Of a stretch of DNA of 64,000 nt, positions 1 through 64,000 are shown piece after piece. Source of the DNA: an uncultured Alphaproteobacteria bacterium (GTDB lineage Bacteria > Pseudomonadota > Alphaproteobacteria > Micavibrionales > Micavibrionaceae); the NCBI GenBank assembly GCA_963740205.1, contig CAVUDD010000005.1, forward strand, positions 368,860 through 432,859, given 5' to 3'. The notes under the pieces are model-generated. The model searched no databases, was not told where the DNA came from, and saw only the letters and a list, made by a program, of their open reading frames with translations. Positions within the stretch are counted from its first letter, which is position 1; each line of letters begins with the position of its first letter. The position numbers and the translations under genes are program-made.

Positions 1-1
1 A

Positions 2-181
2 GGTTATGCTGGTTGGAGCGAGGGACAGTTGGAGGAAGAATTAAAGGAAAATGCGTGGCTGGTTGCTGATGCAGATAATACACTTATTTTTGATACCAAC
101 ACAGCTAAGCTGTGGGAAAAAGCTGTTCAGACATTAGGTGTCGAGCCTAGTTTTCTAACCACCCATGCTGGAAACGCCTAA
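2..181 (+). CDS. YqgE/AlgH family (UPF0301) protein, C-terminal fragment; 5' end lies outside the window
   Basis: Frame 2 reads GYAGWSEGQLEEELKENAWLVADAD...LTTHAGNA, then TAA at 179-181. The GY(A/S)GW..GQLE motif and the GxA C-terminus are typical of this family. Confidence 0.6.
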   Translation, partial: GYAGWSEGQLEEELKENAWLVADADNTLIFDTNTAKLWEKAVQTLGVEPSFLTTHAGNA

Positions 182-217
182 GTCTTACTTATGACACTTC
201 CTCTACGCTATCTAATT

Positions 218-847
218 TCAATTAGATTTATTCAGCCCATATAAAATATGATCTTGGCGGAGGCCTTCAATTTCGACATAAGCTTTGGCGAGGCCCTCTT
301 CTTCAAAGCCAAGACGCTCAAGTAATTTACGGCTTCTAGTGTTATTGGGTAGAGTTGCTGCGTTCATTCTTTGTAATTTTAAAACAGAAAAGCCAAAACG
401 GATTATGGCGTCCAGTCCTTCATGCATAAGAGATTGCCCTTGTCTTTCCGCATCTATCCAATAGCCAAGCCAGCCATATTGCGCAGCACCTCTGCATACA
501 CTGTTAATATTGATACCCCCAATAAGCTCACCTGAAGGGCGTTCGAAAAGAAGAAAGGCATATGCATTATCTTCTTTCCATTCATGTTCCTGACGGTTGA
601 GTTTACGAGTAAAATATTTACGTTCATCCCAGCCTGTATTCCATTTTGGCTCGAACGGTGTCAGGTGGCTTTTGTTGTTGGTGCGAACTTCAATCCACTC
701 TTTCCAGTCCGTTTTTCTGGGCGCACGTATAGTCAGTCTTGGTGTCTTAATCAGGGTGTACTTATAAGAGGGGAAACCTTCTATTGTAAATTCTGATTTA
801 GTTTTGTTCATCGCGCGCTCAATTATTTGAAAGATATCTGTTTTCAA
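218..847 (-). CDS. GNAT family N-acetyltransferase (RimJ/RimL-like)
   Basis: 209-aa ORF with a TTG start. It has the RimJ-like layout (TPRLTIRAP...; ...QGQSLMHEGLDAIIRFGF...LQRMNAAT.P.N..S..LLERLGF). Confidence 0.7.
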   Translation of the reverse strand: MKTDIFQIIERAMNKTKSEFTIEGFPSYKYTLIKTPRLTIRAPRKTDWKEWIEVRTNNKSHLTPFEPKWNTGWDERKYFTRKLNRQEHEWKEDNAYAFLLFERPSGELIGGININSVCRGAAQYGWLGYWIDAERQGQSLMHEGLDAIIRFGFSVLKLQRMNAATLPNNTRSRKLLERLGFEEEGLAKAYVEIEGLRQDHILYGLNKSN

Positions 848-2403
848 GATGGGAAATCAAAAAGTCGGGCGATAGTTTATGTCCTGTCGCTTTCTTTATG
901 AGATCAGCAGGCGTATAGAGGCTTCCCATTTTATGAATGCGTGTATGAAGCCAATGTGTAATATCCTCGAAGTGCCCATTCTCTATCGAGCCATAGATTT
1001 TGGGAATATCGTCTTTCATCTTTTCAAAGATTTGGGCGGCAATAATATGCCCCAAGGAATAGGATTGAAAATATCCAAATTTGCCAACAAACCAATGCAC
1101 ATCTTGCAAGACACCTTGGGTATGGTTTTGTGGCATAACTCCCAATTTTTCATGCATCCATTCTGTCCAGTAGGCGGGGATATCTTTGACCTCGATTTTA
1201 CCTTCTATCAAATCACACTCAATTTGAAAGCGTAGGAAAATATGGAAGAAGTAAGTGACTTCATCGGCTTGTTTACGGTTTAGGGAGGGTTTGACCTCTG
1301 TTTTAATACGGTGCAGGTTTTCCGCGGTAAGCGATGGGTCACCAATAGTATGGAATAGACCCTCAAGGCGCGGTGCAAGAAACGTAAAGAACTCCGACGT
1401 ACGTCCAATCAGCATTTCAATAAATAGCGCCTGACTTTCATGGACTGTGGTGCCCATATCGAGTGCAACAGGTTGATAGGCCCATTCACCAGTAGCGGGT
1501 AATCCTTGCAGATAAATACCGTGCCCGCCTTCATGTAGGGCGGATTTCATAGAGTTCTAAAAAGTTCTTTGTATCCACGTTCTTGATAACAAGACGAGCA
1601 TCATCAGGTGTTCCACCTTCAACAGGCGAATGTCCTGTTTCATACAGAGCGCCTCTATTAAAATCAAACCCAAACAGACCAATAAGTGCTCGGTTAAGAA
1701 GCATTTGTGCTTCTGTTCCAAATGGTCCGCTCAAGGGAATGATTTCATCGCGCTGTTTTTGCCGGTCAATAATTTTAGGCATCATTTTGGTAAGCTCAAC
1801 ATCAAGCTTGTTAAACCATTTCCAAACAGTTGGCAGATCAAAGCCAGGGGAGTGATCTTGGACTAATGCCTCAAAAAGTGTTGAGCTATTACGCATTTTT
1901 GCTTTGCGCTCGGCGACGCGCCTTGTGTGATCCACGACTTTTTGTAAATGTTTTTCGGCCGTTGCCCAGTCACCATCAATCAAGATACCACGGTGTAGAC
2001 GACGCCCCTCATTAGCGATAAGAGCTGATTTCTCCATCAACTCATGATCCATAATGGCGTGTTTTTTATAATTATTGACCATACCTTTGAGGTTGGCAGT
2101 ATTCCATTCATCCCAATATTTAGGATGAGCATCAAGATGTTCTTGTGCTTCATCCAGCTCACGCTCGGCATCGCAACAAACAATATCATCATGGATGCGG
2201 CGCTGGAGGTAAGAAATTTGATCAATGCGGTTGCTATAGGCACCCTCGGGCATAGCAGTCAGGAAATCCCGCGAGATAATTTCAGCAATGGCTGCCAAAC
2301 GCCCGACGTTTCTGTGGCGACGCATTAGACGTTCATAGGCTTCACAAGGTAGAGAAGATTTCTTTTCAGCGGTCATGTCATCTACTATGTGAGAAGCCAT
2401 CAA
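819..2403 (-). pseudogene. M32 (Taq-type) carboxypeptidase, split by one frameshift
   Basis: ORFs 1531..2403 and 819..1550 overlap and together give a full M32 protein. The HEGGHGIY (HExxH), HESQ and DVHW...GYFQSYSLG motifs sit in the second ORF. Removing one base near 1555-1560 restores ...DTKNFLNSMKSALHEGGHG. Confidence 0.8.
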
Positions 2404-2886
2404 CCTTGTCTATAGCGAAACATAGAGAAATTTAAAGGTTAACAAGGTGTAAAGCATTTCACGGATTTGAAAAGAAAACGCACGAACTCACTAACACTGT
2501 TAATATTATGTAAACTATTTGGAGCGAAGGGCTTAAATAAGCGAAACCCTCGAATGAACGGGATCCGAGGGTTTGCAATGAGGGTATTTAGGTTGAAACT
2601 TATTTTTTGCCTGGCTTTGTAGGCTTTTTCTTTGTTGGCATGGTATACCTCTTGAAAGAAGTGGTGGTCACAACCGGCCATCAGGCGCAAAGGACTTCCA
2701 TTTGCATCTATAAATTTATCACGTTTATGGGCAAAAACGAGTGTTTTAAGCGCTTCTTATGAACTTCGCAATTCTATTTCAGTATTAGGGAAAGTGGCGT
2801 TTAAAATGGCCATCAAGGCTGTTTATTAGGAAACGACAAGGCAGATAAAAACTTGAATTATTATTTCAAGAATTTGCCTTTTCAAA

Positions 2887-3025: not shown

Positions 3026-4880
3026 TTATTGATTGCCTATATATTTAAGCGGAAACCTCTTTGCAAAATAGCTAACACCAGCAGGTGTAAGGTGAAAACC
3101 ATCAAATGTCATCATGTCTTTATTTTCATCAAATAGAGCACATGTTTTATCGTTACAAAACATTTCTAAAGGGTCAATAAAAGGCACGCTTATGCTGTTT
3201 TCGATTTTTTTATTTATTATTAGAGTTTCTGGCTTTGGTAGTATGCGCATATCGTATCTTTTTGGTGTGGGCATATTAAGAATATCCTGTTGTGAATAGA
3301 TCATACGCTTTGTGCCGAAAACGATAAACTTGTCTCCGTATTCATCTACAAGATTTTTGAGACTCTGAGGTATGAAATCAATTTCCCATTCGTGCCAACC
3401 AAATGCAATAAAAACTATATCAGCGTCCTCCATCAGGTCTTCAGTTTTATCAGTAAAGCTTGTCGGCCTCACGACAGACTTTTTGTGAAGCTGGGGGGAT
3501 ATTGTGCTCAAAAGAGAGCGTTCAATATAGAGGTTACCGCAAATATTATTGACACGGACACTGCTGAATTGGAGCGGTTCATCCGTAGGAATTTCACTAA
3601 GAATATTTATAAGATCACCAGAGTTACTATCACCCACTATTAGGATTTTTTTTCCAGAATTTTCAACAAATGGCTTTCCCTCGTGTTGGTTTTTAATAAA
3701 CCATACTAGTTCGCCATAATTTTTACGTGATTGAAAAATCCGCATATCATCGTCAGAGTAGCGCCATAAATTACCTTTTGTTAATGTGCCAACGAAGCCA
3801 AGGCCACAAGTAAATAAGACTGCAATTATACTGAGCTTAAAAATAGCGCTTCTGCTAAACTTTGATTTGTCACGAAATGGGTTTTCTACGTATTTCCAGC
3901 TAAGATAGGATATAGGGAAAACAGCTATGGATAGTGCAAACATTAAAGTAGGTGTGAGGTCTTCATCTATAGTGTGGCGGGCGAAAGCGAGAATAGGCTG
4001 ATGCCATAGGTACGCGCTGTATGAAAGTAAACCGATCATGACAATTATTCGTATACTAAGAAGATGATAAACGAATGTTCCACTGTTGGCATAAATTATA
4101 ATAAGAGCCGTACCAATTGTAGGAACAAGTGCATATAAACTTGGAAAGGGCGTTTCTTTATCAAAATTAAAAATTGCAAAAAGAATAAATGCCAATCCGA
4201 ATATACTACCAACTTGTTGGAAAGGATTATCTTTTCTTATGGGTGTTTTATATAAATAAATTGCAACAAAAGCACCAATAAGAAGTTCCCATCCTCTCGT
4301 AGGTAGAAGATAGAAGGTGGGACTTGGCGCATTATAAGCCCCCCATTGTGCAAGTGATATACTAAAGTAAAAATGTGAGAATTAAAATTCCAATAATGGT
4401 GTGTAACCCCCAGCGCCAAAAAAGCAGGAAAAGTACAGGAAAAAATATATAGTATTGTTCTTCAACTGCTAGACTCCATGTATGAAGCAGAGGCTTTAGT
4501 TCGGCTGAGTGTCAAAGTATCCTGCCTGTGTCCAAAAGAAGATATTAGACCAAAAGGTAGAGGCAGAAATTATACTTTTCGAGAAGTCTTCCGCAGCATC
4601 GGGCAAGGAGGATAAAATAGGCAAATGGAATGCAGGAAAAAATAACAAGAAAGAGAGCGGGGAATATGCGTCTGGCTCTGCGCTCGTAAAAATGGATAAT
4701 GCTAAATTTACCTAGATGCATCTCTTTGAGAATAATACTGGTAATTAAAAATCCACTGATGACGAAAAAGACGTCGACACCAACAAACCCCCCGCTAAAT
4801 AGGGAAAATCCTGCGTGGAACAGGATAACAGGAAGAACGGCAATGGCTCTTAACCCATCTATTTCAGGACGGTATTTCAA
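3026..4880 (-). pseudogene. Acyltransferase-3 (OafA/YrhL-like) O-acyltransferase with a C-terminal SGNH domain, with multiple frameshifts
   Basis: The N-terminus (4545..4880) reads MKYRPEIDGLRAIAVLPVILFHAG...VDVFFVISGFLIT. The C-terminus (3026..4195) has a GDSNSGD SGNH block. The expected middle motifs (HTWSLAVEEQYY, FYLLPTRGWELLIGA) lie in other frames between about 4200 and 4620. Confidence 0.75.
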
Positions 4881-5010
4881 GAGTTAGATTCCCCTCTCAA
4901 TATTTCAATCTGTACGTTTTTCTTTAAAGATGACATATGGATACTCTCATTATGAGAGATAGTTTAACTCAAGAACTGTAATTTACAATCTCTGCCCTAT
5001 ATATGTATCT

Positions 5011-5220
5011 ATGAAACTCCTGACCACGACATATTCAGTGTTTGAAGCCGACATTATCACCACGAAGTTAAGGGCGAGCGGTATAGAGGCTTTCCCACAT
5101 TCGCGAGAACACATGGCACAAGATGCCCTTGTCGGGATTGCCCTTGGCGGTGTCCGTATTATGGTGCATGAGGATGATTACCACTCCGCCCTCGAAATCC
5201 TCAATGATGTTGAAGAGTAG
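5011..5220 (+). CDS. DUF2007-like small protein (putative signal-transducing fold)
   Basis: 69-aa ORF reading MKLLTTTYSVFEADIITTKLRASGIEAF...ALEILNDVEE. This resemblance is recalled from family knowledge, not from a search. Confidence 0.45.
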   Translation: MKLLTTTYSVFEADIITTKLRASGIEAFPHSREHMAQDALVGIALGGVRIMVHEDDYHSALEILNDVEE

Positions 5221-5736
5221 CTATTTAAGGTTTTTTGAACTATAGCGATTAATAAAACATGGCACGTGAGTGATCAAAGGCAGTTGAAGCTTGATAAAGC
5301 CAGCATCGTAAGAGTATAGGCATGCGCGAAGTTTAAGATATTTTCGTTTGATGCAAATCGTAGCTTCCATAAATGGGCAAACAAAAGTGTAAAAGAACCG
5401 TAGGTAAGCAGTACCCAAAGTAAAAAGGGACTCTTTTCTAAGTACGCAATATTTTTCCATGATTCTATATTTGATTTGATAACAAAATACTCTTCCATTT
5501 AAGGTGCGCCACGTTTGATGTAAGTTCGTTTTTATGTCCACATGTTTTGTGAATCATACTTCGTATCCATTCCCATTGCGAACGTATGTTCCTTCACGTC
5601 CTTCAACCGTATAAACGCAAAAATCCTCTCCTGTATTTGTACCTTGTAAAAAGAGGTCGAAATAAATGAAAAAAGCACGCAGATTAGAGCTATTACCCAA
5701 TAACTAAATGCTGTCCTGAAAAACTTAATAATCACA

Positions 5737-7328
5737 TCACTCCCACTCGATGGTGCCGGGTGGTTTGGATGTGATGTCGTAAACCACTCTGTTGATACCA
5801 CGTACTTCATTGATAATGCGGGTGGACACACGGCTCAAAAATTCGTGGTCGAAATGGTAGTAATCCGCAGTCATTCCATCGGTTGAAGTGACAGCGCGTA
5901 GCGCGCAGACAAAATCATAAGTTCTGTCGTCACCCATCACACCGACGGTTTTCACAGGTAGAAGCACGGCAAAGGCCTGCCATATTGCATCATAAAGACC
6001 TGCGTTTTTAATCTCTTCAAGATAGACCGTGTCGGCCTTTCTTAAAATCTCAAGTTTTTCACCAGTGATTTCACCGGGTAGGCGAATGGCAAGTCCAGGC
6101 CCGGGGAAGGGGTGGCGTTTGATAAAGTCCTCGGGCATACCAAGTTCTTTACCCAAGATGCGTACCTCGTCTTTAAATAATTCACGCAAGGCTCAACGAG
6201 TTGTAAGTCCATGCGTTCAGGCAAGTCCACCGACATTATGATGTGATTTGATTGTGACCGATGGCCCACCTGTAAAGGACACGGATTCAATCACATCTGG
6301 ATAAAGTGTACCTTGTGCCAAGAAATCAACCTCGCCAATACGCAGGGCGATTTCCTCGAACACATCAATGAAGGTCGCGCCAATAATTTTACGTTTCATT
6401 TCGGGGTCTGATACACCCTGTAGAAGTCCAAGAAAGCGTTTTCCTGCATCCTCATGGATAAGTGGAATGTTGTAATGATTACGGAACAATGAGACGACTT
6501 GGTCACTTTCCCCTGCACGCATCATGCCGGTGTCGACATAAATACAGGTTAATTGATCGCCAATTGCCTCGTGCAATAAAACCGCAGTCACGGATGAATC
6601 TACACCGCCTGAAAGCCCGCAAATAACCTTACCCTTGCCGACCTGTTTCCGAATTTTTGCAATGGCTTCTTCCTTGAACGCCGCCATAGTCCAGTCACCA
6701 TCACATTCGCACACATTATGCGTAAAGTTTTTGAGGAGTTGAACGCCGTGCGGGGTGTGAACAACCTCGGGGTGGAATTGTACGGCATAGAATTTACGTT
6801 TTTCATCCGCGATAAATGCATAGGGCGCGCCCTCGGATGTTCCAATAATTTTGAAACCTTCGGGCAGTTCTGTAACGCGGTCGCCGTGGCTCATCCAGAC
6901 TTGTTCATGTGCGCCTTCGTCCCAAACACCATCGGTAACAGGTGTGTTGGCCTTTACATCAACATAGGCACGACCAAATTCTTTGTGTTCGGAGGATCTC
7001 ACCTTGCCACCTAATTGTTGAACCATGGTTTGTTGTCCATAACAAATTCCAAATAGGGGCAATCCCATATTGAATAAACCATCGGGCGCGCGCGGAAAAT
7101 CTTCCCATGTCACACTTTGGGGGCCACCAGAAAGAATAACACCCTTGGGATTATAGGCCTGAATACGCTCTACGCTTGCCTGATTAAATGGCCAAATCTC
7201 GCAATAGACACCAGACTCTCTGACACGGCGGGCAATAAGCTGTGTAACTTGAAGCCGAAATCCAAAATAAGAATTCTATCGTGCTTCTTTTGGATTTCAG
7301 TGAGTGATGTTTTTTGTTCTGCTTGCAT
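5737..7328 (-). pseudogene. guaA: GMP synthase (glutamine-hydrolysing), interrupted by three single-base frame changes
   Basis: The N-terminus [16 protein letters not shown] runs from ATG 7328 and then goes out of frame near 7250-7256. The middle ORF is 6217..7113 (SGGVDSS ATP-PPase motif). [12 protein letters not shown] is in a third frame (6190-6222). The C-terminus is 5737..6189 (...KPPGTIEWE). Confidence 0.9.
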
Positions 7329-7433
7329 GAAATAGTTTTAGCGAAAGGATGGGTGAAAAGAAAGCTTTGAAAATAAAAAAAAATCCTTAAACATAAATTA
7401 CAAAATTAGAGAATTTTAAATTGGAAGTTTGAA

Positions 7434-8072
7434 ATGGCGGAACGCTTTATTTGTCTTGGTGACTCTATAACAGAGGGGATTGGTGATCAAAAAAAGATAG
7501 GCTGGCCCGGAAGGCTCTCACAGCTTATAGAAAATACGTACCCTGATAGGTGGCATATTCATAATTTAGGCATTGCAGGCGATACAACTTCGGATATTTC
7601 CCATAGATTCTTCTCAGAAGTCTTGTATAGAAGGCCACAAAGACTGGTTATATGCGCTGGGGTAAATAATTCAGTGGAGATTTTAAGGCCAAACTCTAGT
7701 GGTACCAAGTTAAGTAAAGAATATACAAAAAGCCTTTGGGAAGGACTTGCGGACGAAATTACCAAATCAAAAATAAGTACGGTTCTTTTAGGTCTACCGC
7801 CTGTAAATGAAGAGCTTTTTCCACTAATATATAAGCCCTATGATAAGGAAGACAAAGGAATTCGGTTATTCAATGCAGAGATAAAAAAACGTGAAGATAT
7901 AATATTTTCAATATGCAGAGAAAAGAGTTTGGAATTTATTCCATTACACGAAAATCTTTTAAAAACGGATTATGTGGCACATCTCTCGGACGGTCTGCAC
8001 CCAGATGCTAATGGCTATGATATTCTGGCCGAATTTCTCTTTAATGAGTTCAAAAAGATACAGTTTTTGTAG
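7434..8072 (+). CDS. SGNH/GDSL hydrolase family protein
   Basis: Contains ICLGDSITEGIGD (block I), GINNS-like (block III) and DGLHPDANGY (block V). Confidence 0.65.
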   Translation: MAERFICLGDSITEGIGDQKKIGWPGRLSQLIENTYPDRWHIHNLGIAGDTTSDISHRFFSEVLYRRPQRLVICAGVNNSVEILRPNSSGTKLSKEYTKSLWEGLADEITKSKISTVLLGLPPVNEELFPLIYKPYDKEDKGIRLFNAEIKKREDIIFSICREKSLEFIPLHENLLKTDYVAHLSDGLHPDANGYDILAEFLFNEFKKIQFL

Positions 8073-8089
8073 TCCCGTTGCCTGTATTC

Positions 8090-9181: not shown

Positions 9182-9302
9182 TAACTATCACTTATTTCCA
9201 TAAAAAAAGACATGCCTAGTTTATAAATTTTGTATATTTATATGTCAATAAATTTTCTTGTTATAACTTGCAGAAATAAGCGGAACAAGACATTGTCAAA
9301 TA

Positions 9303-14434: not shown

Positions 14435-14441
14435 ACTCATC

Positions 14442-27259: not shown

Positions 27260-28880
27260 ATGTTACGCCTTGTTAGACGTTTCCACCTTACGCAAAACCC
27301 ACGCGCAGATATTTTATCGGGATTAACCGTTGCGTTGGCATTGGTTCCCGAGGCTATTGCCTTTGCCTTTGTCGCAAAGGTAGACCCACTGGTTGGACTT
27401 TACGCTGCGTTTTTCGTAGGATTTATTACCTCCATTTTGGGTGGCAGAAGTGGAATGATATCTGGTGCGACTGGTGCGATGGCTGTTGCTATGGTGGGGC
27501 TTGTAACCGTGTACGGTGTTGAATATTTATTTGCAGCGGTTCTTTTAACTGGCCTCATTCAGATTGGTGCAGGTATTTTCCATCTGGGTAAATTTATCAG
27601 GCTGGTTCCTTATCCCGTTATGCTGGGGTTCGTAAATGGACTAGCGATTGTTATTTTCTTGGCGCAACTTGCTCAATTCAAAAAACCTATCCTCGAGGCT
27701 GTTGACGAGGTTCATACCAGTGAAACAGGACACAGTGCCATCGACGTTCTTTTTAATGGGGGTTGGTTGCAAGGCTCGGACATGAATTTGATGTTGGGGC
27801 TTACTGCTTTAACCATGTTTGTAATTTGGGCCTTTCCCAAAGTTCCTAAAATCGGGAAATGGTTACCTGCCTCATTGGTGTCGATACTAGGTGTATCTGC
27901 TCTTGTGATTGGCATGGATTTGGACACAAAAACTGTCGGTGACCTTGCCAGTGTTGCGGGGGGATTGCCTAAATTCCACATACCGATGGTACCGTTCACT
28001 CTGGAAACACTTTTTATTATTCTTCCTGTTGCGGTTACATTGGCCGCCATTGGACTCATAGAAAGCTTGTTAACCCTAACATTGATTGACGAGATGACGG
28101 ACACAAGAGGTCGTACGTCTCAAGAATGTATCGGGCAGGGTTTGGCCAATACGACTTGTGGAATGTTTGGCGCGATGGGTGGATGTGCAATGATTGGTCA
28201 ATCCATCATTAATATAAATTCAGGAGGGCGCGGCCGTTTGTCGGGAATTACCGCAGCACTCGCTTTGTTAGGCTTCATCCTTTTTGCCTCGCAATGGATT
28301 GAGATGATTCCGCTGGCTGCACTCACAGGCCTTATGATGATGGTGGTTATCTCGACCTTTGCATGGACATCCATTCGTATCATGAACAAAATCCCTAAAG
28401 AGGATGCCTTTGTTATTTTCTTGGTAACAGGCCTAACGGTTGCTTATGACTTGGCGCTTGCCGTGATAATTGGCGTGATTGTATCCGCACTAGTTTATGC
28501 GTGGAAATCAGCAAATAAATTCTGGGTGACGGTCTGGCACAATGAGGCGGATGGAAACAAAGTCTACAAACTTCATGGTCCTTTATTTTTCGGCTCTATT
28601 TCCAAATTCCGTGACGAGGTTGACCCCAAAAATGATATCGAGAATGATATCGTTATAGACTTTAGCCGAGCGCGTGTCTCGGGATCATTCTGCGTTGGAG
28701 GCAATTGATGCCATGGCATTGAAATACACAGAAGCTGGCAAAACACTTCATCTGGTTCACCTTAGTCCTGACTGTAAAATGTTGCTTAAAAACGCCAAGG
28801 ATCTGGTCGAGGTTAATCATATTGAAGACCCGCATTACGGCGTGCTTGTTGATTATGAAACACAGATGAATATGAAATAA
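27260..28880 (+). pseudogene. SulP family anion permease with a STAS domain, one frameshift near 28675-28682
   Basis: 27260..28708 holds the transmembrane core (GLTVALALVPEAIAFA). The STAS end continues in ORF 28674..28880 (DHSALEAIDAMALKY...). Removing one base restores ...SRARVWDHSALEAID. Confidence 0.8.
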
Positions 28881-47805: not shown

Positions 47806-47853
47806 GGTGGCTTTATTGGTGGCCTTCCAAAATGCAGAAATGTAAAGGCCACC
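47806..47853. repeat. GGTGGC(C/T)TT motif cluster upstream of the integrase: two direct copies plus one inverted copy (putative arm-type/operator sites)
   Basis: GGTGGCTTTATTGGTGGCCTT is at 47806-47826 and AAGGCCACC is at 47845-47853. The latter can pair with 47818-47826, forming a hairpin 4 nt before the int ATG. Confidence 0.5.
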
Positions 47854-47857
47854 AGAA

Positions 47858-49088
47858 ATGAAATTAACAGACCAAAGTTGTAAGTCCGCTAAACCTAAAG
47901 AAAAAACTTATAAAATGGCTGATGGTGGCGGCCTTTATTTCAGAAATTACGCCCAAAGGAAGTAAGTTGTGGCGCCTTAAATACAGGTTTTTGAAAAAGC
48001 AGAAGAAATTATCAATCGGCATATATCCAACTATTACACTTGCAGAGGCTCGTAACCAGCGCGATGAATCCAAGAGACTATTAGCCAATAATCTTGACCC
48101 TGCCGCCATTAAGCAAGAAATTAAGCATAAAATGCATAGTGAGGCCGCCAATACCTTCTCAGTGATTGCCCGTGAATGGTTTGATATAAAAAAGGTTGAA
48201 TGGTCTAAGGCTAATACCGTTCAGATATTAAATCGTTTAGAAAAAGATGTTTTTCCAATTATTGGCAAATATCCTATAAATATGATTACTCATAAAATGC
48301 TTTTAGACCTAGCACATAACGTTAAGGAACGAGGCGCTCATGAATTAGCTAAGCGTATCATTCAAATGTCTGTTCATATTTTTCGCTATGCAATTGTAAC
48401 AGGCAGAGCAGACAAAAATATTGCCGAAGATCTAAAGGGAATGGTCAAATCTGAACCCAAAAGCCATTTTGCGGCCATTGAAGCAAAGGAATTACCTGAG
48501 TTTATATCAGACTTGCGCAATCATAAAGCACGCCTCAACCATCAAACTTACTTAGCCGTAAACTTTATGATGCTTACTTTCGTTCGCACGAGCGAAATGA
48601 TCAAAGCTGAATGGAATGAATTTGATTTTGCAAATAGAGTATGGCTTATTCCTGCTCGCCGCATGAAAATGAATAAAGACCATATCGTGCCTTTATCACG
48701 CCAAGTAATAGCCATGTTAGAGGAATTAAGAGAGATTCATCATCACCCTAAATACGTTTTTCCTAGTCGCATAAACAGGGATAACCACATGAGTAATAAC
48801 ACTGTTCTTATGGCCATAAAGCGAATGGGGTATGCAGGACGCATGACTGGACACGGCTTTCGTGCGCTGGCTATGAGTACCATCATGGAGAAATTAGGGT
48901 ACAGACATGAGGTGCCTGATGCACAGCTTGCACATGCGAAAAAGGGGGATGTGGCAAGAGCCTATGATAGAGCCAAATTTTTAGAAGAGCGCACTTTAAT
49001 GATGCAGGAATGGGCTGATTATCTCGATAACATTGCACAAGGTGGAACAGTAATTAGTGGTAATTTTACAAGAAAAAAGAAGGCTTAA
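47858..49088 (+). pseudogene. int: P4-type tyrosine integrase (DUF4102 N-terminus), one frameshift near 47930-47945
   Basis: ATG 47858 gives MKLTDQSCKSAKPKEKTYKMADGGGL and then stops. The protein continues in ORF 47922..49088 (...SEITPKGSKLWRLKYRF...HGFRA...LAHAKKGDVARAYDR). Confidence 0.85.
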
Positions 49089-49661: not shown

Positions 49662-49751
49662 AATATAATCTTTATGGATGATATGGTATTTATTGGTAAT
49701 TGGTAAGATATACGCCTATACTTTTCACATTATTATAATTTGGGGGTTAGA

Positions 49752-50470
49752 ATGGAAAGTGCTGATTACTGGCGTTTGTGCGACCATGTATCTCTATTTC
49801 AAGCAATCATGCTGATTTTAGGTTTTGACCCTTCTGACCAGCTTAGCTGGGATATGGAAGGGAGAAAAAACATTACCCTTCCACGTGGGTATGCTGCTTT
49901 AAAGACGGCAATATCAAACGCTGTTTTGAGTGGTCAAATTGAAGCAAAAAGTCAATCTTTGCTTGATGAGTATAATGGCGATGATTTACCCAATACAGTT
50001 GATATTGATAAGACTATTATTTCTGTAAATCATTAAAAAAATATCTTCAAGATAAAGGATTAAACGATGGCTTTTTCTTTCCAGAAGGGACTATTTTTGA
50101 AGAATATATGGATAAAGATAATCCAAACTATGCGCCTAAACTAGCCGCCGCTGTTATTGCTTGGAAAACAATTGCTAACAATCCAGAATTACAAAAAGGA
50201 AAAACGCCTAAGCAGGCACTCGAAAAGTGGTTGAGAGAAAATGCCAGTAAGTACAATCTTACGAAAGAAGATGGGACGCCAAATGAAACGGGCATACAAG
50301 AGATTAGTAAAATTGCAAACTGGAAACCAGAAGGAGGTGCGGCTAAAACTCCTACCCTTAGTACAGTTCAAAACAACTCACCTACCCCTACTAAAAAACC
50401 ATACAAACTAAGGGTTTTTGGTCAACATACAGTTACATATGATGAGTTAGAAGATGATATTCCCTTCTAA
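49752..50470 (+). pseudogene. Island-associated hypothetical protein ending in an SSB-like ..EDDIPF tail, one frameshift at the A7 run near 50034-50041
   Basis: ORF 49740..50036 and ORF 50108..50470 join in sense (...TIISVN / LKKYLQDKGLNDGFFFPEG...). The upstream extension of the second frame is open back to 50030. Confidence 0.55.
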
Positions 50471-50609
50471 AATTACGGAAGGTTTTTAGTTTTCGTAGGT
50501 CAGGTTATATATTTTATAGGGGTTAGTTTTCTTAACTCTACCATCTATTTTACACGACATGATTTAGCATAGCCTCTCCTTATAGCAAATAGCATTAAGG
50601 AGAACTAAA

Positions 50610-50803
50610 ATGCACAATCAAATCTTACCTGAAACTGGCTTCGTCCGTTTACCTCAAGTTCTGAAAGTCTTTCCTGTTAGTAAATCAACTTGGTGGCGGG
50701 CGTAAAATCTGGCATATATCCGCAACCTGTAAAACTTGGTCTTAAAATGACCGCGTGGCGTGTTGAAGATATTCGCGCTCTTATTAATGCAATGAGCGCC
50801 TAG
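50610..50803 (+). pseudogene. alpA: AlpA-family (MerR-like HTH) phage/island transcriptional regulator, one frameshift near 50697-50702
   Basis: An AAGGAGA SD precedes MHNQILPETGFVRLPQVLKVFPVSKSTWWR and a stop. The +1 frame continues GVKSGIYPQPVKLGLKMTAWRVEDIRALINAMSA*. Confidence 0.7.
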
Positions 50804-50807
50804 ATTA

Positions 50808-51338
50808 ATGGCAAAGCGTCTTTACCCTCATAGACGCGTTAAATATTGGTATGCCTATGACATAGATGATATTTGCGCTTTATTTACTGAATTTGGGCTT
50901 CAGTGCTCAAACAGTACGTAAGTGGGTCAAACTTGGTCTTAAAACGATTGACGCGGGTAAGCCAACCTTAATATATGGCCTTGATCTTATTAAATATCTG
51001 AAACTCCAAAATTCTAAGCATAAGTGTCGCACTCAATTTGACGAATGTTTTGTATGAAATGTCAGGATGCTCGACCCATATTTCAACGCAAAATAGTCGT
51101 GAAACAAAAGGAGAGCTTTTTGAACCTCTCAGGCCATTGTCGTGAATGTAAAACAGTGATGTTTAAATCTTATAAGATCGATGATTTACCTCAAATTAAA
51201 CGAACCTTTCATTTGCTTGATGTTTTGGAATTATATGATTATGAGGCCTCCCCCTTTAAGACTCACTTACAAGGTCAAGACGCCATCCCGTCAAATGAGT
51301 CATTATACGGCGCGCATTATGGGGATTTATTTGAATGA
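50808..51338 (+). pseudogene. HTH + zinc-ribbon protein, two compensating frameshifts (about 50901 and 51045-51052)
   Basis: It has three segments: MAKRLYPHRRVKYWYAYDIDDICALFTEFGL, then SAQTVRKWVKLGLKTIDAGKPTLIYGLDLIKYL...FDE in an alternative frame, then FCMKCQ...GHCRECK... back in the original frame. Its stop overlaps the next start (ATGA). Confidence 0.55.
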
Positions 51339-54067: not shown

Positions 54068-54069
54068 GC

Positions 54070-56657
54070 ATGTCGGTCACACAACTTAACTCGCTTGCTT
54101 TAAAAGATTATCAGCAAAAAGTTTTGGATACGCTGAGCATTTATCTTGATACACTTGAAGGAACCTATAAGCGTGAAAAAAGAAACTACGCGTTTGATTT
54201 AGAAGAAGGAATTGAAGACGCCTTGCCACCACATAAATCCCCCTATTGCGCCAATGCATGGGAGAAGGTGAAAAGTAAGGTTGCCGTTCCGATCTATAAA
54301 AATGCGAATGGCCAGAATCTACCTAATAGCTGGACGGACAGGATTGATGGCACAGGGCGTAAAATCCCTAACATCTCATTTAAAGTCCCCACAGGGGGCG
54401 GTAAGACCCTTATGGCGGCGTGTTCGTTAGGGCGTATTGCAGGAGACTATTTCAAAACGGCAAAGGGACTCGTTTTATGGGTTGTCCCTTCATCTACTAT
54501 CTATGATCAAACAATGGATGCATTGGGAAATAAAGAACACCCTTACAGAATGCAGCTGGATATTGAATTGGGCGGACGCACCAAGAATATTAGAACGAGG
54601 CGACGCATTTGAATTGGCAGATGTAGAAAGCCAGCTTTGTGTGATGGTGATCATGCTACAATCTTTCAATGTCTCCGCCCGTAGTAAGGATGCTCGTAAG
54701 GTTTTCAGTGATACTGGAAAATACAGCTCATTCTTTCCCGCAGTTGATGATTATAGCGCAAATAATGAATTGCTTTCGCGTGTTCCTAATTTAATGGAAG
54801 CAGACATGCTGGAACGTGATGTTATTCAAGGCATTACTATCAAACATTCCTTAGGTAATGTTTTTCGCTTATGTCGTCCGATCGTTATTATTGATGAAGA
54901 ACATAAAGCGCGGTCACAATCAGCCATTCAAAATATCAATGAATTTAATCCAAAATTTATTTTGGAATTTTCAGCAACGCCACGCGATAAAAGTAACACA
55001 TTGGTGGATGTTGGCGGATATGCTTTAAAACAGGAACAAATGATTAAATTGCCTATACGCGTTGATTCAAGTGATCAGCGCGATTGGAAGACAACTTTAA
55101 ACGCCGCCCATTCAAAGTTACTGTCCCTTTCTAATGATGCCGCAAAGCTAGCAGGGAATAAATGGAACATATATTCGTCCAATAATGGTGATTATTGCAC
55201 AGCCTAGGCGACAAAATGATGATTATGATCACGTTGAAGATATTAAAAAATATCTTATGGACATATGCCAAGTGCAAGAACGCCAAATTAGGATAAAGTT
55301 ATCAGAAAAGAATGAGATTAAAGATGATGATTTAATGAGTAAGGCTTGTCCTGTTCAATATATTATCACCAAAGATGCCCTGCGCGAGGGATGGGATTGT
55401 CCTTTTGCGAGCGTTTTGACCGTTTTAATTCAAGCAAGAAGTGTGGAAGCCCTAACACAGTATATTGGCCGTGTATTACGCCAACCTTACGCAACAGAAA
55501 CCCCTATTGCCTCATTGAATGAAGCATATGTGTTTTGTAGCCGTCAAAATGTTGGGGATGCGGCAAAGGCGATTAAAGATGGATTAGAGGCTGAGGGAAT
55601 GGGCGACATAACGCAAAGCGTTATTAACGAGGGCGAAGGCGGTGGCGATATACAACGTCAAAAGCAGGTTGTTAAAAGAAACAAAAAATACGAAAACAAA
55701 ATTTTCTTACCTTCTTTATCTGCTGTTAATTCAAATAAAACAATATCGCCATTTGACTATTATCGCGACATTTTGGGCGAAATAGATTGGTCACATTACA
55801 AATGCTCAAAACTTCCTATCTTAGCGGATCAAAATCGTATCGACGTTGATACACGTACAGTTGATTATAAAGATAATATTTTAGGTGAATTTGAATTCAA
55901 AGATTACGAGATTGATCTTGATGATGACTTTTTCGCCCTAGAAGTTGAGTATTCTTTGTTAACATCGCAATTAACGGAAAAGATACCAAATCCATTGTAG
56001 GCAAAACGGATTTTGGATGATGTTGTGAAGGTACTGAAAGAAAAAGGGATAAGCGAAAAAATTATTGCTCTGTCAGGGCATGACATAGTCAAACAGATTA
56101 AAGATGATGCTTGGAAGTGGTTATTAATTAAATCTGAAAAGCTCTTTATTGAAAAACCGGATCATAATCAGATTTTATTGAAATTGTTGGCCGCCCCGCA
56201 TACAGAGTTAAATTGGGAAATGGGTGATCAACGCACAATTTATAAAAATCCTGATGAAGCTGAAGCTAGTGATTGGGATAAAAATCTATTCCAACCTCAA
56301 TTTAAAAGTAACTATAACGGCTTAGAAAAGCAGGTTGCAGCTTATATTAATCAAAGTAAGGCGGTTAAATGGTGGCATAGACTTGGCGTTAAGGGGACAG
56401 AATACGCCTTACAAGGTTGGAAGCGTGATAAGATTTATCCTGATTTCCTCATATACGGAGAAAATGACAAATATTATTTTTGTGAAACCAAAGGCAATCA
56501 CCTTGAAAACCCCGATAGTGAGTATAAGCAGAAAGTCTTTGAGTGTTTAACAACCCATTCAAATAAGCAAATCGGCGAATTTAAATTACTAGCAGGCGAA
56601 AAAGAAATCTCTTTTGATCTTATTTATGAGAATGAATGGGAAAGAAAAGTTGATTGA
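54070..56657 (+). pseudogene. res: Type III restriction enzyme Res subunit (SF2 helicase + PD-(D/E)xK nuclease), with two frameshifts and one in-frame TAG
   Basis: Has Walker A (PTGGGKT), a DEEH box (IIDEEHKA), REGWDCP and C-terminal IYPDF...CETKG. Frame changes lie near 54575-54600 and 55160-55190. The TAG at 55998-56000 is in the same frame as ORF 56013..56657. Confidence 0.8.
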
Positions 56658-56695: not shown

Positions 56696-58365
56696 ATGGC
56701 TAAATTATATGAAGGAAGTACAAGAGTTTATCTAGCAAAAGATAATCCGCATAAATTTATTAAAGAATTGAAAAAATTTCCAGAGAGCATTTTATTCGTA
56801 ATATATTACGGGGGAAGCAAATGGAATGACTTTGGTTTTAATACAAATTTCAAATTTAAAATATTTTATAATTTAGAAGAAATCTATGATGATAGTATTA
56901 AGTTCTCCTTCTTAGAGGAACCTTATCGTTTATTTAGAAAATTTGATGAAATTTTTATAAATAAGCAGGCAAATATAATTGATAGTAAAGACAGTCCTAA
57001 ATTTTTCACTATGCTCAATGATATGAGAGCATATAGAAACTTTGTTGATTTTTTCACTCCCAGCGAATCTACAGCAATATTATCTGCCGCGAATGATATT
57101 ATATGTCAAAAAATTCTTTCCTTCTCAGAGAGTTGGTATGAAGAAGCCTTAAATACCAAGGTATTTAATCGGTCTTTCATCAGGTCAGGTCAGGCATATT
57201 TTACGTTTCACAATGCGCAGCATGTATTAAATGGCTCTGAGTATAAAAGTATAGAAAAGATTCAAGGCGATTTTACGGCAAATTTTAAAATAGAAGGCAC
57301 TGAAAATGACTATAGTATAGATTTTAAATTTCACGATAGTGCACTTTTGCCCAATAGAATGTCGGTTATGATTGGTAATAATGGAGCAGGAAAAAGCCGA
57401 TCTTTTCATAATATTGCTTCTTCTTTGTTAGATGATGACGAAAGATTTCGTGATAAAGATGGTGGTCGACCAAAGTTAAGTAGACTGATTTGTATTTCAT
57501 CACCATCAGAATTATCAAAAACTTTTCCTAGATACCGTTCTAGGCCCCGTCTACCTTATCTGAAAATAGCCAATGGAAGAGGCGGGAGGTTCAATCTATG
57601 GCCGTGTGAGCAAATAATTAGACTTTTACGCCTAGAAGATAAATTTATAAGAGGGGATAGGTGGAATTTATTTACAAACGCTATTTATAAAGAATTTAAT
57701 CTCAGCGAGTTAGCTCTCCCATTCAAAAAAAACGTTGAAAATGAAGAATATGATATAGGACAAAAGTATATCCTTTTTAAGGATTTAGAAAATTTTAGAG
57801 AAGAACGCGGTCTAGAAACTTACGAAAAGATAGATAAAAAATCTGACCCAGTAAGAGTTGTGAATGATAAAATATTCCCTATGAGTAGCGGAGAGGTCTC
57901 ATTTATAAACTTAATCAGCACGCTGTGTCTCCATATTGAGAATGGAAGTCTAATTTTACTTGATGAACCTGAGAACTTCACCTTCATCCTAATTTAATTA
58001 CTGCGTTGGTTTCAGTGTTAAACAATTTACTCCAAGAAACAGGATCAATATCTATAATAGCGACGCACTCTGTATATTTTGTAAGAGAAGTTACGCGTAA
58101 GCAGGTTCACATTTTTAAAAATAGTAATAATAAAATTACATTGCTAAAGCCGCGTCTGAAAACTTTAGGTGCGGGGATAGATTCAATTTCACAGTTTATT
58201 TTTGAAGATGAGATAACTAGTCGAGTAATAGAAAATATAAAAGAAAAATTGAAGAAAAATCCTAGTGAAGCAAAAGAATTATATGAAAGTATAGAGGACG
58301 AACTGCCCTCGGAAGCCAAAATCGATCTTATTTCTATTATTGATAATAAGGTGGATGAGGCTTGA
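56696..58365 (+). pseudogene. ABC-type (AAA_15/AAA_21-like) ATPase, PtuA-like, with an N-terminal extension of about 220 aa; one frameshift near 57975
   Basis: Has Walker A GNNGAGKS (57374), signature SSGE, Walker B LILLDEPE, then a frame change, then LHLHPNLI...IATHS (H-loop) in ORF 58006..58365. Confidence 0.65.
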
Positions 58366-59356: not shown

Positions 59357-59593
59357 TATCAACCATACAATCTGCACAATCTAAAAAAACAAAGGGCTTT
59401 GGGCCAATGTTTGTCTAAAGCCGTCTAGTGTTACCTATAAAATCAGATACGACTATTAGCTCTAAATCGATCATTTTTATTTTTTATATAAAAATACTGA
59501 TTTCCGCAGCTTTTCTTCTCATAACAGCCTTCTATATCATTGCTCAGGGAAAAATTCTGTTGCCTAGATATTCATTTGATAAGGACATTTTTG

Positions 59594-60082
59594 ATGAAAA
59601 AACTTCTCTCTTTTTTGGCTGTGATAATTGTGTTGTCTGGCACAAGCTATGCAAACACCAATCCGCAAGATGTTGTCCAAAGATTGCTTTCTTATTCCGA
59701 CGCCAAGAAACCAGAGCAAGCCAAAGAATATATGACAGAGCGGTCGCATTCATTGTTTGATAGGTTGTATGCGCATGATTTAACACACCTCATTCCCTCG
59801 GATACACAGCTAGTTGATGTAAAGGAAAAAGACGGTTTTCAATATGCCCGCTTTGCCGATCCTCAAAAACCAAAGCAGGGCACAGCAATTCTGGTCTTTC
59901 AGCAAGAGAACTCTATTTTGAAACTGGACTTACCTGAGACATTTCGCACAGGATTTGGCGAAGACTGGCCAAAGAAAATTGATATGATCGAGGCCAGCTA
60001 TTTGTTCACCAAACAATATTACGGTGAAGCTCAAAGCAAAAAAATACTTGAGGCATTTCTTGGTAAAAAAAGTAGTAACTAG
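59594..60082 (+). CDS. Hypothetical secreted protein
   Basis: ATG 59594 gives MKKLLSFLAVIIVLSGTSYA (signal peptide). The track ORF begins further upstream at 59540. Confidence 0.5.
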   Translation: MKKLLSFLAVIIVLSGTSYANTNPQDVVQRLLSYSDAKKPEQAKEYMTERSHSLFDRLYAHDLTHLIPSDTQLVDVKEKDGFQYARFADPQKPKQGTAILVFQQENSILKLDLPETFRTGFGEDWPKKIDMIEASYLFTKQYYGEAQSKKILEAFLGKKSSN

Positions 60083-60268: not shown

Positions 60269-60454
60269 ATGAAAGACCTAACAAACAGAACTTGCAAATG
60301 GCCTATTGGCGACCCACAGGAAAACGATTTTAAATTTTGTGGTGCGTACTCAGGCAACGAGGAAAACCCCTATTGCCAGAGCCATACAGAAGAGGCCTAT
60401 AGAACGGCCTACAAATCAAAAAGCCAGCAAGCCCCGCTTAAAAGAGCTGCCTAG
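60269..60454 (+). CDS. GcrA-C-terminal-like mini-protein (61 aa)
   Basis: [21 protein letters not shown]...[11 protein letters not shown] matches the conserved C-terminal motif of alphaproteobacterial GcrA. The N-terminal DNA-binding part is absent. Confidence 0.55.
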
Positions 60455-60784
60455 ACCTTTTTCACAAATTCGGATTTAAGTCCCATGGCGCCTATGCCGG
60501 GGATTTTACAATCAATGTCATGATCTCCGTCCACAAGGCGGATGTTCTTGACCTTTGGTCCCGACCTTTACGACAGAGGATGACCCTTTGACCTTAAGGT
60601 CCTTAATGACGGTGACCGTGTCGCCATCGGTTAATTCAACGCCATTTGAATCACAAATAACTTTCTTATCGTTTTGAGCACCATCACTTGACCACTCATG
60701 CCCGCACTCTGGGCAATTCAAAAGGTTGCGATCTTCGTATACGTATGCAGATTGGCATTTCGGGCAGGGTGGTAATTCACTCAT
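60451..60784 (-). pseudogene. phnA: PhnA-type zinc-ribbon protein, one frameshift near 60553-60556
   Basis: MSELPPCPKCQSAYVYEDRNLLNCPECGHEW...[18 protein letters not shown] is followed, in another frame, by [33 protein letters not shown]. Confidence 0.8.
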
Positions 60785-61971: not shown

Positions 61972-61999
61972 AAAAAAACCCGCAAATTGCGGGCTTTTT
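61972..61999. terminator. Bidirectional rho-independent terminator
   Basis: AAAAAAACCCGC-AAATT-GCGGGCTTTTT lies between convergent adh and mdh. Confidence 0.75.
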
Positions 62000-62017
62000 A
62001 ATGTGTTCTTTTTAAGA

Positions 62018-63013
62018 TTAAGCTGCCTGTTTCTTGGGAAATAACCCCTCAACTGCGGCGCGTTCTTCGCGGAGTTCTGTGTTTGTGGCATCCATTCTCT
62101 CACGTGAGAAATCATTGATGTTTAAGCCTTGAACGATTTGGTATTTGCCGTCCTTACATGTCACGGGATAACCGTAAATGACGCCTTCCTCAATACCGTA
62201 TGACCCATCGGACGGGATAGCCATTGAAACCCAGTCGCCGTCCTCTGTGCCCAAAGCCCATGAGCGCATGTGGTCAATCGCCGCGCCAGCTGCGCTTGCA
62301 GCAGAAGAAGCCCCGCGCGCTTTAATGATGGCGGCACCACGTTGTTGTACCTCGGGAATGAATGTCCCCTCGTACCAGTCTGTATCAACGCATGACATGG
62401 CCTCTGCGCCGTCGACTGTTGCGTGGTGAATGTCAGGATATTGTGTTGAGGAGTGGTTGCCCCAGATAATCATTTTTTTGACATCTGTTGAATGCTTGCC
62501 TGTTTTGTCGGCCAGTTGGCTAATCGCGCGGTTATGATCCAATCTTACCATTGCCGTAAAACATTTTGGATCAAGGTCGGGTGCATTTTGTTGGGCAATC
62601 AACGCATTTGTGTTTGCTGGGTTACCAACGACAAGAACCTTGACGTCACGAGACGCATAGTCATTTAAGGCCTTTCCTTGTGGCCCAAAAATTGCGCCGT
62701 TGGCCTCAAGCAAGTCTTTACGCTCCATACCTGGACCACGAGGGCGCGCACCAACAAGAAGGGCATAATCGCAATCTTTAAAAGCCACAGCCGCGTCATC
62801 TGTTGCAATTACATCATGCAAAAGTGGGAAGGCACAATCATTGAGTTCCATAACGACGCCCTGCAACGCGCCAAGGGCAAGTGTAATTTCAAGCAAGTGC
62901 AAACACACAGGTTGGTCTTTACCAAGCATATCCCCTGAGGCTATGCGGAATAAAAGTGCGTAACCGATTTGGCCTGCTGCGCCTGTGACTGTGACGTGGA
63001 CTGGAGTTTTCAT
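62018..63013 (-). CDS. mdh: Malate dehydrogenase (NAD-dependent)
   Basis: [31 protein letters not shown]...GNPANTN...WGNHS. The start was taken at ATG 63013. Confidence 0.9.
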
Positions 63014-63144
63014 GGGAGTAATGCCTTTCTTGATGGTCAAAAGTAAATTCTGAAATTCAACATGGAATTATCTGTGGCGAGTTTCAAGGGAAAAATTTGA
63101 GGTGAGTGCTTTTAAACGAAGGCTTTATCCTTTAAAACAAATGC

Positions 63145-64000
63145 ATGGGTCACGGACATCATCATCATGGAGCATTAGCAGAGGGGCAGGAACATAGTCC
63201 CTCGCACGCGGTATTTGCAGGATGGGCGGCAATCACCATTGTTTCAATTATGATTTTTGCCAAGCTTGTTGCCTTTCTAATGAGTGGCTCCGTCAGTGTT
63301 TTATCATCTCTTATAGATTCATTTGCCGATATTATGATGTCCATCATGGCTTTGATTTCTGTCAAAATGTCCCTTAAGCCCGCCGATGATTGCCACAGAT
63401 ACGGTCATGGGAAAATCGAGGGGTTGTTTGCAGTTGTACAGTCTATGTTTATTTTTGTAGCTGGTGGCGCGGTTATCTACAGTGCTATTCACAATATTAT
63501 TCACCGCGAGGTTTTAACCGACCAGTATTTAGCCTCTGCAATCATAGTCCTTTCAATTGTTCTAACATTGCTTTTGACAACCATTCAAAAACGAGCTGTA
63601 AAAAAATCAGCCTCTATGGCGATTGAGGCAGACCATGCACATTACCATAGTGATATTTTCATGAACGCGGGTGTTCTTGTTGTTCTGATTTTGACGGCTA
63701 TAGGTTTTCCAAACTGGATTGATGCATTATTTGGCTTGGCGATTGCTGGCTATGTATGGTGGGTTGCCTATGGTGTCGGTAAGAACGCGGTCGATATGTT
63801 GCTTGATCGCGAGGTTGATCAGGAAATCAGACAAAAAATCATGGATATAGTCCTCAGTCATACAGAGGTCAAAGACATGCATGATCTACGAGCTATTCGC
63901 TCGGGCATGAAAATATTAGTGTCTTTTGACATCGAGGTTGATCCTAATATTCTGCTTTGGACAGCACACGAGATAGCGCTATCTGTTGAGCGCGATGTCG
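63145..64000 (+). CDS. Cation diffusion facilitator (CDF) family transporter; 3' end lies outside the window
   Basis: My own translation gives MGHGHHHHGALAEG...SLIDSFADIMMS...HRYGHGKIE...DHAHYHSDIFMN..., a His-rich N-terminus with typical CDF motifs. It is absent from the track because no stop occurs in the window. Confidence 0.8.
   Translation, partial: MGHGHHHHGALAEGQEHSPSHAVFAGWAAITIVSIMIFAKLVAFLMSGSVSVLSSLIDSFADIMMSIMALISVKMSLKPADDCHRYGHGKIEGLFAVVQSMFIFVAGGAVIYSAIHNIIHREVLTDQYLASAIIVLSIVLTLLLTTIQKRAVKKSASMAIEADHAHYHSDIFMNAGVLVVLILTAIGFPNWIDALFGLAIAGYVWWVAYGVGKNAVDMLLDREVDQEIRQKIMDIVLSHTEVKDMHDLRAIRSGMKILVSFDIEVDPNILLWTAHEIALSVERDV

Follow-up and report, generated by a model that had tools for sequence, protein, structure and literature searches.

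The 64,000-nucleotide stretch of DNA analysed here (the window) carries 20 reading-frame lesions, and we infer, rather than observe in reads, that they are consensus errors of the deposited, indel-prone assembly and not biological gene loss, a reading to which we assign a probability of roughly 0.93. The same single-base breaks occur across the assembly in indispensable single-copy genes, so that consensus errors, not gene loss, almost certainly explain them. The first-pass annotation had asked whether the lesions reflect genome decay or an indel-prone assembly; the essential genes and the controls on sister genomes argue strongly for the latter, and the arguments offered for real decay fail. 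A few lesions of a mobile island in the window, notably a nonsense codon in the restriction gene res, could be real.

Reading-frame lesions in the window

Lesions were located by frameshift-aware protein-to-DNA alignment against intact homologues together with three-frame reading. All 18 lesions that had been listed earlier, in 11 genes, are present where they had been placed, and two more were found in the acyltransferase gene as a compensated pair (−1 at 3513 and +1 at 3461). The total comprises 11 +1 changes, 8 −1 changes and one TAG, distributed over the following genes.

822..2409, reverse strand, M32 carboxypeptidase gene: +1 at about 1554 (frameshift-aware alignment to the orthologues of the relatives G004, 88% identity, and G002; tblastn splits the gene into two frames).
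3038..4880, reverse strand, acyltransferase-3 plus SGNH gene: five frame changes, +1 at 4607, −1 at 4503, +1 at 4364, −1 at 3513 and +1 at 3461 (alignment to the G004 orthologue).
5740..7325, reverse strand, guaA: −1 at 7252, +1 at 6225 and −1 at 6187–6192 (nucleotide alignment with the copies of contig C3, G004 and G002; translations; frameshift-aware alignment).
27260..28868, forward strand, SulP transporter gene: +1 at 28679 (alignment to the G002 orthologue, 85% identity).
47849..49088, forward strand, island integrase: +1 at about 47942 (four homologous integrases, from L039, L048, L074 and L082).
49743..50470, forward strand, island ORF: −1 at about 50030, beside an A7 run at 50036–50042 (homologues L039_1539_2258 and L048_5160_5957; sequence).
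50583..50785, forward strand, alpA-like small gene: −1 at about 50698 (homologue L039_2249_2593, 69% identity).
50805..51338, forward strand, HTH/zinc-ribbon gene: +1 at about 50904 and −1 at about 51044, a compensating pair (homologues from L039 and L082).
54070..56657, forward strand, type III restriction subunit gene res: +1 at about 54586, +1 at about 55151 and an in-frame TAG at 55998–56000 (eight intact Res homologues).
56696..58365, forward strand, ATPase gene: −1 at about 57975 (three-frame reading, with ..LILLDEPEN in one frame and LHLHPNL..ATHS in another).
60451..60784, reverse strand, phnA/yjdM: +1 at about 60555, an extra G after AAA (Pfam and three-frame reading).

The acyltransferase-3 gene shows a conserved peptide that alternates between two frames, and Pfam Acyl_transf_3 and SGNH match fragments of it. 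Similarly, the 88 aa ORF of phnA/yjdM is matched by Pfam Zn_Ribbon_YjdM and YjdM over profile positions 2–35 of 69 only, and the remainder of the YjdM domain runs on in another frame. The lesions are concentrated in two poor stretches, at 1.5–7.3 kb and in the island at 47.9–60.6 kb, with about 40 kb between them that bears a single error. Two further candidates were rejected: a lesion in the overlapping ORFs at 59428–60082, where G004 has a collinear open frame of 170 aa, and apparent events upstream of polA (46435 and 46460), which stem only from the extension of the G002 query from stop to stop.

Frame changes across the assembly

The assembly (G000) is MAG-like, with five contigs and 1.7 Mb. 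For a census, G002 served as the closest complete relative: 927 of its orthologues, covering 968 kb, were compared with the entire assembly by means of our own frameshift-aware dynamic-programming aligner; counting frameshifts from tblastn HSPs was dropped, as compensated pairs escaped it and shadow ORFs were counted in. Some 88 genes proved to contain about 153 frame changes between them (104 +1, 41 −1 and 8 +2), a density of 0.158 per kb, so that about 10% of the conserved genes are affected and single-base insertions outnumber single-base deletions about 2.5-fold. The identical pipeline returned no event in 166 orthologues (165 kb) of G004, and the reverse test on G002 DNA returned at most 5 events in 256 kb. 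The lesions are thus specific to this assembly: the comparison with orthologues of relatives, which had been proposed earlier, finds breaks genome-wide here and nearly none in G002 and G004. The window, with about 20 events in 64 kb, stands at roughly twice the genome mean and far over the false-positive rate of the aligner (0 in 165 kb); its density is not unusual for the assembly, in which 6–15 events fall in each of several further core-gene stretches of 12.7 kb. Marker completeness is 92% in this five-contig assembly versus 99% in G002, a reduction that would fit broken marker genes.

Frame breaks reach single-copy genes that are indispensable, named here from NCBIfam equivalog models: atpA carries 8, gyrA, ftsY, murC and rpoB 3 each, and rpoC, rpsJ and nrdB 1 each, with lepA (4) and guaB (1) also broken. 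No second copies of the broken essential genes are present in the assembly, and the indispensable single-copy genes are hit at a rate similar to that of other genes. The broken genes are also no more diverged than the unbroken ones, with identities to G002 of 0.734 and 0.718, respectively (p = 0.13). Accordingly, the essential-gene and identity tests on the 927 orthologues detect no bias of the lesions towards dispensable or fast-evolving genes.

The events are strongly clustered: 38% of neighbouring events lie less than 500 nt apart, versus 4% expected, and 88 genes are broken where a Poisson model predicts 137. The first-pass annotation had taken the clustering of lesions within genes as a sign of real pseudogenisation, and had contrasted the lesions with the long housekeeping ORFs that are uninterrupted. 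The first argument fails because clustering is genome-wide, with up to 8–14 frame changes in one gene, and includes atpA, rpoB, gyrA, ftsY and murC. As for the second, polA, clpA, metE, the ABC-F gene and mod are indeed unbroken, and this is uninformative: among orthologues as long as these, no more than 19% are broken, so that five intact ones are expected with a probability of about 0.34.

A locus assembled twice

The end of contig C2 (C2:708011–711108) and the start of contig C5 (C5:1–3087) represent the same 3.1 kb locus. Between the two versions there are 80 mismatches and 14 indels (12 of them of 1 bp), and the ORFs of 203, 228 and 409 aa that are intact in the C5 version are shattered in the C2 version. 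The poor stretches of this duplicate also bear about 2.5% substitutions; therefore, an occasional nonsense substitution is expected in such stretches. A search for an independent assembly of the same strain found no identical MetE protein on record.

Metagenome assemblers are known for degradation of the consensus at contig ends or low coverage and for consensus errors from strain mixtures. The overlap resembles these, with one clean and one degraded version, and a contig of a second, 94% identical strain (C3) is binned with the genome; unlike contig-end degradation, most bursts here lie in contig interiors. The errors fall in local bursts of roughly 0.3–10 kb over all contigs, regardless of gene function. 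Such bursts probably mark a consensus built from a very small number of long reads or from poorly polished ones, or else from mixed reads of a co-occurring 94% identical strain. The real genes of the organism are most likely intact, the frame-corrected translations being as conserved as unbroken genes.

Sequence context of the lesions

A homopolymer of at least 4 within ±6 nt accompanies 15% of the events, compared with 18% of random coding positions, and local GC is 0.441 at events and 0.428 at random positions, with no GC dependence. The hypothesis of homopolymer-driven events (nanopore-type errors or transcriptional slippage) was rejected, since the events are not enriched in homopolymers. 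The earlier remark that single-base indels sit in short homopolymers applies to the A7 run at 50036–50042 and to at most one other site, and does not hold overall. Homopolymer context is the classic signature of errors from nanopore (R9), 454 and Ion Torrent sequencing, whereas artefacts in general need not show it. With this expected signature absent, the errors do not point to a platform, and the conclusion of an artefact is independent of the platform.

Selection on guaA

Two of the three frame changes in guaA, the +1 at 6225 and the −1 at 6187–6192, compensate each other at a distance of 34–38 nt. In an exact-pattern scan of metagenome contigs, with both indel sites left variable, this pair had no match. 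The dN/dS of the window copy against the 94% identical C3 copy is 0.044 at a dS of 0.27, next to 0.055 for the intact metE, in a test that covers guaA, the other broken genes having no sufficiently close relative. guaA is under selection. The dN/dS that had been suggested for the interrupted genes is thus not elevated in guaA, which argues against decay. We also considered the C3 copy as a functional back-up that lets the window copy decay; this was rejected on the same dN/dS, and the C3 copy has a different +1 of its own.

The mobile island and res

The island integrase adjoins a tRNA-Glu (47616–47691), and all four of its homologues put the shift at 47942–47945. Eight intact Res homologues of 859–904 aa likewise concur on all three lesion positions of res, and mod (52385–54067), upstream of res, is intact. 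The TAG at 55998 is a change from CAG that replaces the conserved Q of the PNPWQA motif, in which the neighbouring W has also become L.

These features bear on a mixed origin, in which assembly noise accounts for most lesions and a minority are real inactivating mutations in the island, with res as the prime candidate, leaving an orphan Type III Mod methyltransferase. Mobile-island genes are the likeliest to be truly decaying, and an inactive res next to an intact mod is common in bacteria. Lesions are five times as dense in the island (0.79 per kb) as in the genome on average, and the nonsense codon is the only lesion type without a counterpart in the 927 core orthologues, in which no clean internal stop was seen (the 14 flagged stops fall within shadow ORFs, within N-terminal extensions or within genes whose frame is badly shifted). 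However, comparable densities occur in stretches of core genes only, the substitutions in the poor stretches of the C2/C5 duplicate provide a source for such a codon, and the frame-corrected island proteins are still 40–70% identical to intact homologues over their full length. We consider real inactivation within the island unlikely, although the TAG of res in particular could be real.

Reductive evolution and recoding

Consensus errors also account better for the data than reductive evolution, in which a host-restricted organism would be losing genes and the lesions would be fixed pseudogenising mutations. Mycobacterium leprae and Sodalis are recently host-restricted examples with abundant pseudogenes, and the present assembly resembles them in its many frameshifted genes, some with several lesions, and its small genome. 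The nonsense codon in res points the same way, as do the breaks in guaA, guaB and purD, three genes of the purine pathway. However, genomes are just as small (1.3–2.6 Mb) among relatives in its genus and family, and the sister species lack such lesions. In further contrast to M. leprae and Sodalis, essential genes are broken as often as others, selection on guaA is not relaxed, ORF coverage is high (92–94% versus 95% in G002), and a self-BLAST of the assembly reveals no IS expansion or dispersed repeat families. The intact version of the twice-assembled locus also speaks against it. The idea of a host-associated organism undergoing gene loss, which the first-pass annotation had raised, thus gains no support here, and we regard it as very improbable.

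It is scarcely credible that the lesions are real and tolerated, the organism restoring the frames by transcriptional slippage or ribosomal frameshifting when the genes are expressed, along the lines suggested for the poly-A tracts of certain insect endosymbionts: nothing specific favours it, slippery or homopolymer contexts are absent, +1 and −1 changes both occur at arbitrary sequences, one gene can carry as many as 8–14 changes, and the duplicated locus has an intact version. Real frame changes with rpoB, atpA, gyrA and others expressed by pervasive recoding independent of slippery or homopolymer sequence would be just as far-fetched.

Comparison with long-read assemblies

The available text of three sources (10.1101/2021.08.23.457338, PMC12007338 and PMC8103633) describes how indels fragment genes in long-read (meta)genome assemblies, and the first two present frameshift-correction tools for the fragmented genes (proovframe and Kastor, respectively). 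The available text of PMC8103633 and PMC9262707 discusses the indel problem in nanopore MAGs, and that of PMC9262707 attributes nanopore indels to homopolymer regions; unlike those, the indels here show no homopolymer enrichment. The present assembly resembles such assemblies in that single-base indels split conserved genes, essential ones included, marker completeness is depressed despite high contiguity, and frame-corrected proteins are normal. It differs in the excess of insertions over deletions (2.5 to 1) and in the local bursts of errors.

Implications

In general, clustering of lesions within genes and intact long housekeeping ORFs nearby are unreliable as arguments that pseudogenisation is real, and a check of essential genes over the whole assembly settles the choice between decay and artefact quickly. 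Pseudogene counts, completeness estimates and metabolic reconstructions of this assembly are biased, for example by the apparent loss of guaA, guaB and purD. Until the reads have been checked, features such as the triple disruption of res next to an undamaged mod, guaA with its three frame changes, and the island's unusual N-terminal modules or gene boundaries should not be taken as biology. The biological interest of the lesions is low and their value is practical: any downstream reading of this genome must reckon with spurious frame changes that come in bursts and number about 0.16 per kb.

Reading-frame lesions in the window

The studied assembly (1,706,637 bp in five contigs, GC 42%) has a marker completeness of 92% and a contamination of 0.65%; the window is C5:368860–432859. 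Lesions, meaning frame changes or in-frame stops relative to an intact homologue, were located with a custom protein-to-DNA aligner that permits +1, −1 and +2 frame changes and in-frame stops. Intact queries were taken from two relatives of the same genus (G004 and G002, the latter the closest complete one) and from C3, a contig of the same assembly that is 94% identical in the guaA region. For the tRNA-Glu island (47.9–60.6 kb), queries came from 80 loci retrieved through the intact Mod protein. Frameshift-aware alignment and frame reading recovered all 18 lesions listed in the first-pass annotation.

Lesions in the window, by gene
M32 peptidase: +1 at 1554
Acyltransferase: +1 at 4607, −1 at 4503, +1 at 4364
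guaA: −1 at 7252, +1 at 6225, −1 at about 6190
SulP: +1 at 28679
Integrase: +1 at 47942
Island ORF: −1 at about 50030, adjoining an A7 run
alpA: −1 at 50698
HTH/Zn gene: +1 at about 50904, −1 at about 51044
res: +1 at about 54586, +1 at about 55151, TAG at 55998
ATPase: lesion at about 57975
phnA: +1 at about 60555

The acyltransferase also carries a compensated pair (−1 at 3513, +1 at 3461) within a seemingly intact ORF of 389 aa; added to the listed lesions, it brings the window total to 11 insertions, 8 deletions and 1 nonsense codon. Judged from sequence, these lesions very probably come from indel-prone assembly and are not biological (probability about 0.93).

Frame changes in essential genes

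The deciding question is whether the same type of lesion appears where it would be intolerable. The comparison covered the whole G002 genome (1.77 Mb), in which 927 of 1,605 long ORFs had a clear orthologue (968 kb aligned). The studied assembly shows about 153 frame changes (104 of +1, 41 of −1 and 8 of +2) in 88 of these genes (9.5%), or 0.158 per kb. The same procedure applied to 283 kb of G004 gave no events in 166 orthologues (165 kb); therefore, the aligner invents none and the lesions are specific to the studied assembly. A cruder reverse test of G002 gave at most 5 frame changes in 256 kb. Among the few candidate lesions in G002 is an apparently split gene at about 898745–899751 of its C1, where overlapping ORFs of 138 and 225 aa correspond to one intact ORF of 369 aa in the studied assembly (C1:52460–53566), with the frame change at the ORF junction; the split here seems to be in G002.

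The broken genes, named via NCBIfam equivalog models, include katG (14 changes), atpA (8), czcA (5), lepA and flgE (4 each), gyrA, ftsY, murC and rpoB (3 each), purD (2), and rpoC, rpsJ, nrdB, guaB, clpB and uvrB (1 each). Of these, rpoB is at C1:82.6–83.1 kb, atpA at C4:97.6–98.8 kb, gyrA at C2:431.9–432.2 kb and katG at C5:485.6–487.1 kb. No second copy is present in the assembly for rpoB, rpoC, rpsJ, nrdB, guaB, atpA, gyrA, ftsY, murC, lepA or katG. A cell cannot survive joint frameshifts in RNA polymerase, gyrase, FtsY, MurC, ribosomal protein S10 and ribonucleotide reductase. Three purine-pathway genes are frameshifted, namely purD (C5:350641–351906), guaB (C5:449435–450920) and the window guaA; the trio resembles pathway loss but is most likely a coincidence, since 9.5% of core genes carry frame changes.

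A locus assembled twice and other contig features

One locus of 3.1 kb was assembled twice, at the end of C2 (C2:708011–711108) and at the start of C5 (C5:1–3087). The two versions are 97% identical and are separated by 14 indels, of which 12 are single-base, and by 80 mismatches. The C5 version holds ORFs of 203, 228 and 409 aa, and in the C2 version 1 bp indels break the same three genes into pieces of 72–127 aa. Thus, the consensus of this assembly is demonstrably degraded in places, at about 4 indels per kb and a substitution level of about 2.5%. Because these ends overlap, C2 and C5 are probably adjacent in the genome.

C3 (28.7 kb) is syntenic with window 4750–18667, the guaA–metE region, at 89–95% identity over most of its length, falling to about 76% over a single 0.8 kb segment. 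The dS values of 0.07–0.35 with low dN/dS indicate that this divergence is real. The C3 flanks (1–1946 and 16497–28753) have no match elsewhere in the assembly. C3 is most likely a fragment from another, related strain or species that was binned with the genome; a segmental duplication is less likely. C2 also carries a perfect tandem array (564934–572119; 675 bp period, about 10.6 copies at 100% identity, units of 225 aa) with 98% identical flanking copies at 562990–565041. Either a giant surface protein built of repeats or an expansion by the assembler could account for it; such perfect identity is odd for an otherwise noisy assembly.

Probable error type

Genome-wide, 38% of neighbouring events lie less than 500 nt apart (4% expected), and the events fall in 88 genes as opposed to 137 expected under a Poisson model. 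These bursts strike essential genes as readily as others, so clustering within genes, earlier read as a sign of pseudogenization, reflects how the errors arise. The sign is often uniform within a burst: atpA has seven single-base insertions and one two-base insertion, and 12 of the 14 katG events are single-base deletions. Overall, insertions outnumber deletions by 2.5 to 1.

The homopolymer context noted for some window indels does not hold as a general pattern, for runs of at least four within ±6 nt accompany 15% of events and 18% of random positions; nor is there a local GC bias at the events. Fragmentation of genes by indels in long-read assemblies is well described in earlier reports (10.1101/2021.08.23.457338, PMC12007338, PMC8103633). 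The events do not match the classic homopolymer-deletion signature that PMC9262707 describes for nanopore data. The burst structure, the degraded end of C2 and the presence of a co-binned strain at 94% identity point to two possible causes: a local consensus that is low-coverage or unpolished, or one that mixes strains.

The res gene and the island

Over its 12.7 kb the island carries 10 lesions, and stretches of equal length composed of core genes only have 6–15. Single lesions in the window may yet be genuine, chiefly those in the island, but it is unlikely, although less so than general decay, that at least one island lesion is truly inactivating. The res TAG stands in place of CAG, the codon for the conserved Q in a PNPWQA motif, beside a W-to-L change, and no clean internal stops were observed in the core genes; but poor stretches of consensus carry substitutions as well, as at the degraded C2 end. 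At window 55992–56000, TGG CAG has become TTG TAG, so that the motif reads PNPL*, with two adjacent changes to T.

The gene order from integrase to res is common to 3 of the 80 Mod loci: L039, from a Pseudobdellovibrionaceae MAG, and L048 and L082, from Alphaproteobacteria MAGs. Window 47808–56657 is collinear with L039 (proteins 41–70% identical) and, more partially, with L048 and L082. Homologues of Mod at 45–60% identity turn up remarkably often among MAGs of Poribacteria, Dehalococcoidia, Nitrospirales, Binatia and comparable groups. These MAGs seem to stem from projects on sponge or marine symbionts, which suggests horizontal spread inside such a community.

Selection, coding density and implications

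The long housekeeping ORFs that the first-pass annotation contrasted with the broken genes are indeed uninterrupted. This contrast is uninformative, since only 19% of orthologues of 1.7–2.9 kb carry events and finding five intact has a probability of about 0.34. Affected genes are no less similar to G002 than unaffected ones, with identities of 0.734 and 0.718 (p = 0.13). Contrary to the expectation under decay, the window and C3 copies of guaA give a dN/dS of 0.044 (dS 0.27), similar to the intact metE (0.055). The C3 guaA bears a +1 of its own, differing from those in the window copy; four independent indels with no surplus of amino-acid change is the pattern of errors, not of drift.

Decay as the main cause of the lesions is thus barely credible: indispensable genes without a second copy (rpoB, gyrA, ftsY, murC, rpsJ, nrdB) are frameshifted, guaA remains constrained, ORF coverage is 92–94% (95% in G002) and the assembly contains no dispersed repeat families. 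The lesion pattern, best read as assembly error, is a warning for every other finding from this genome.
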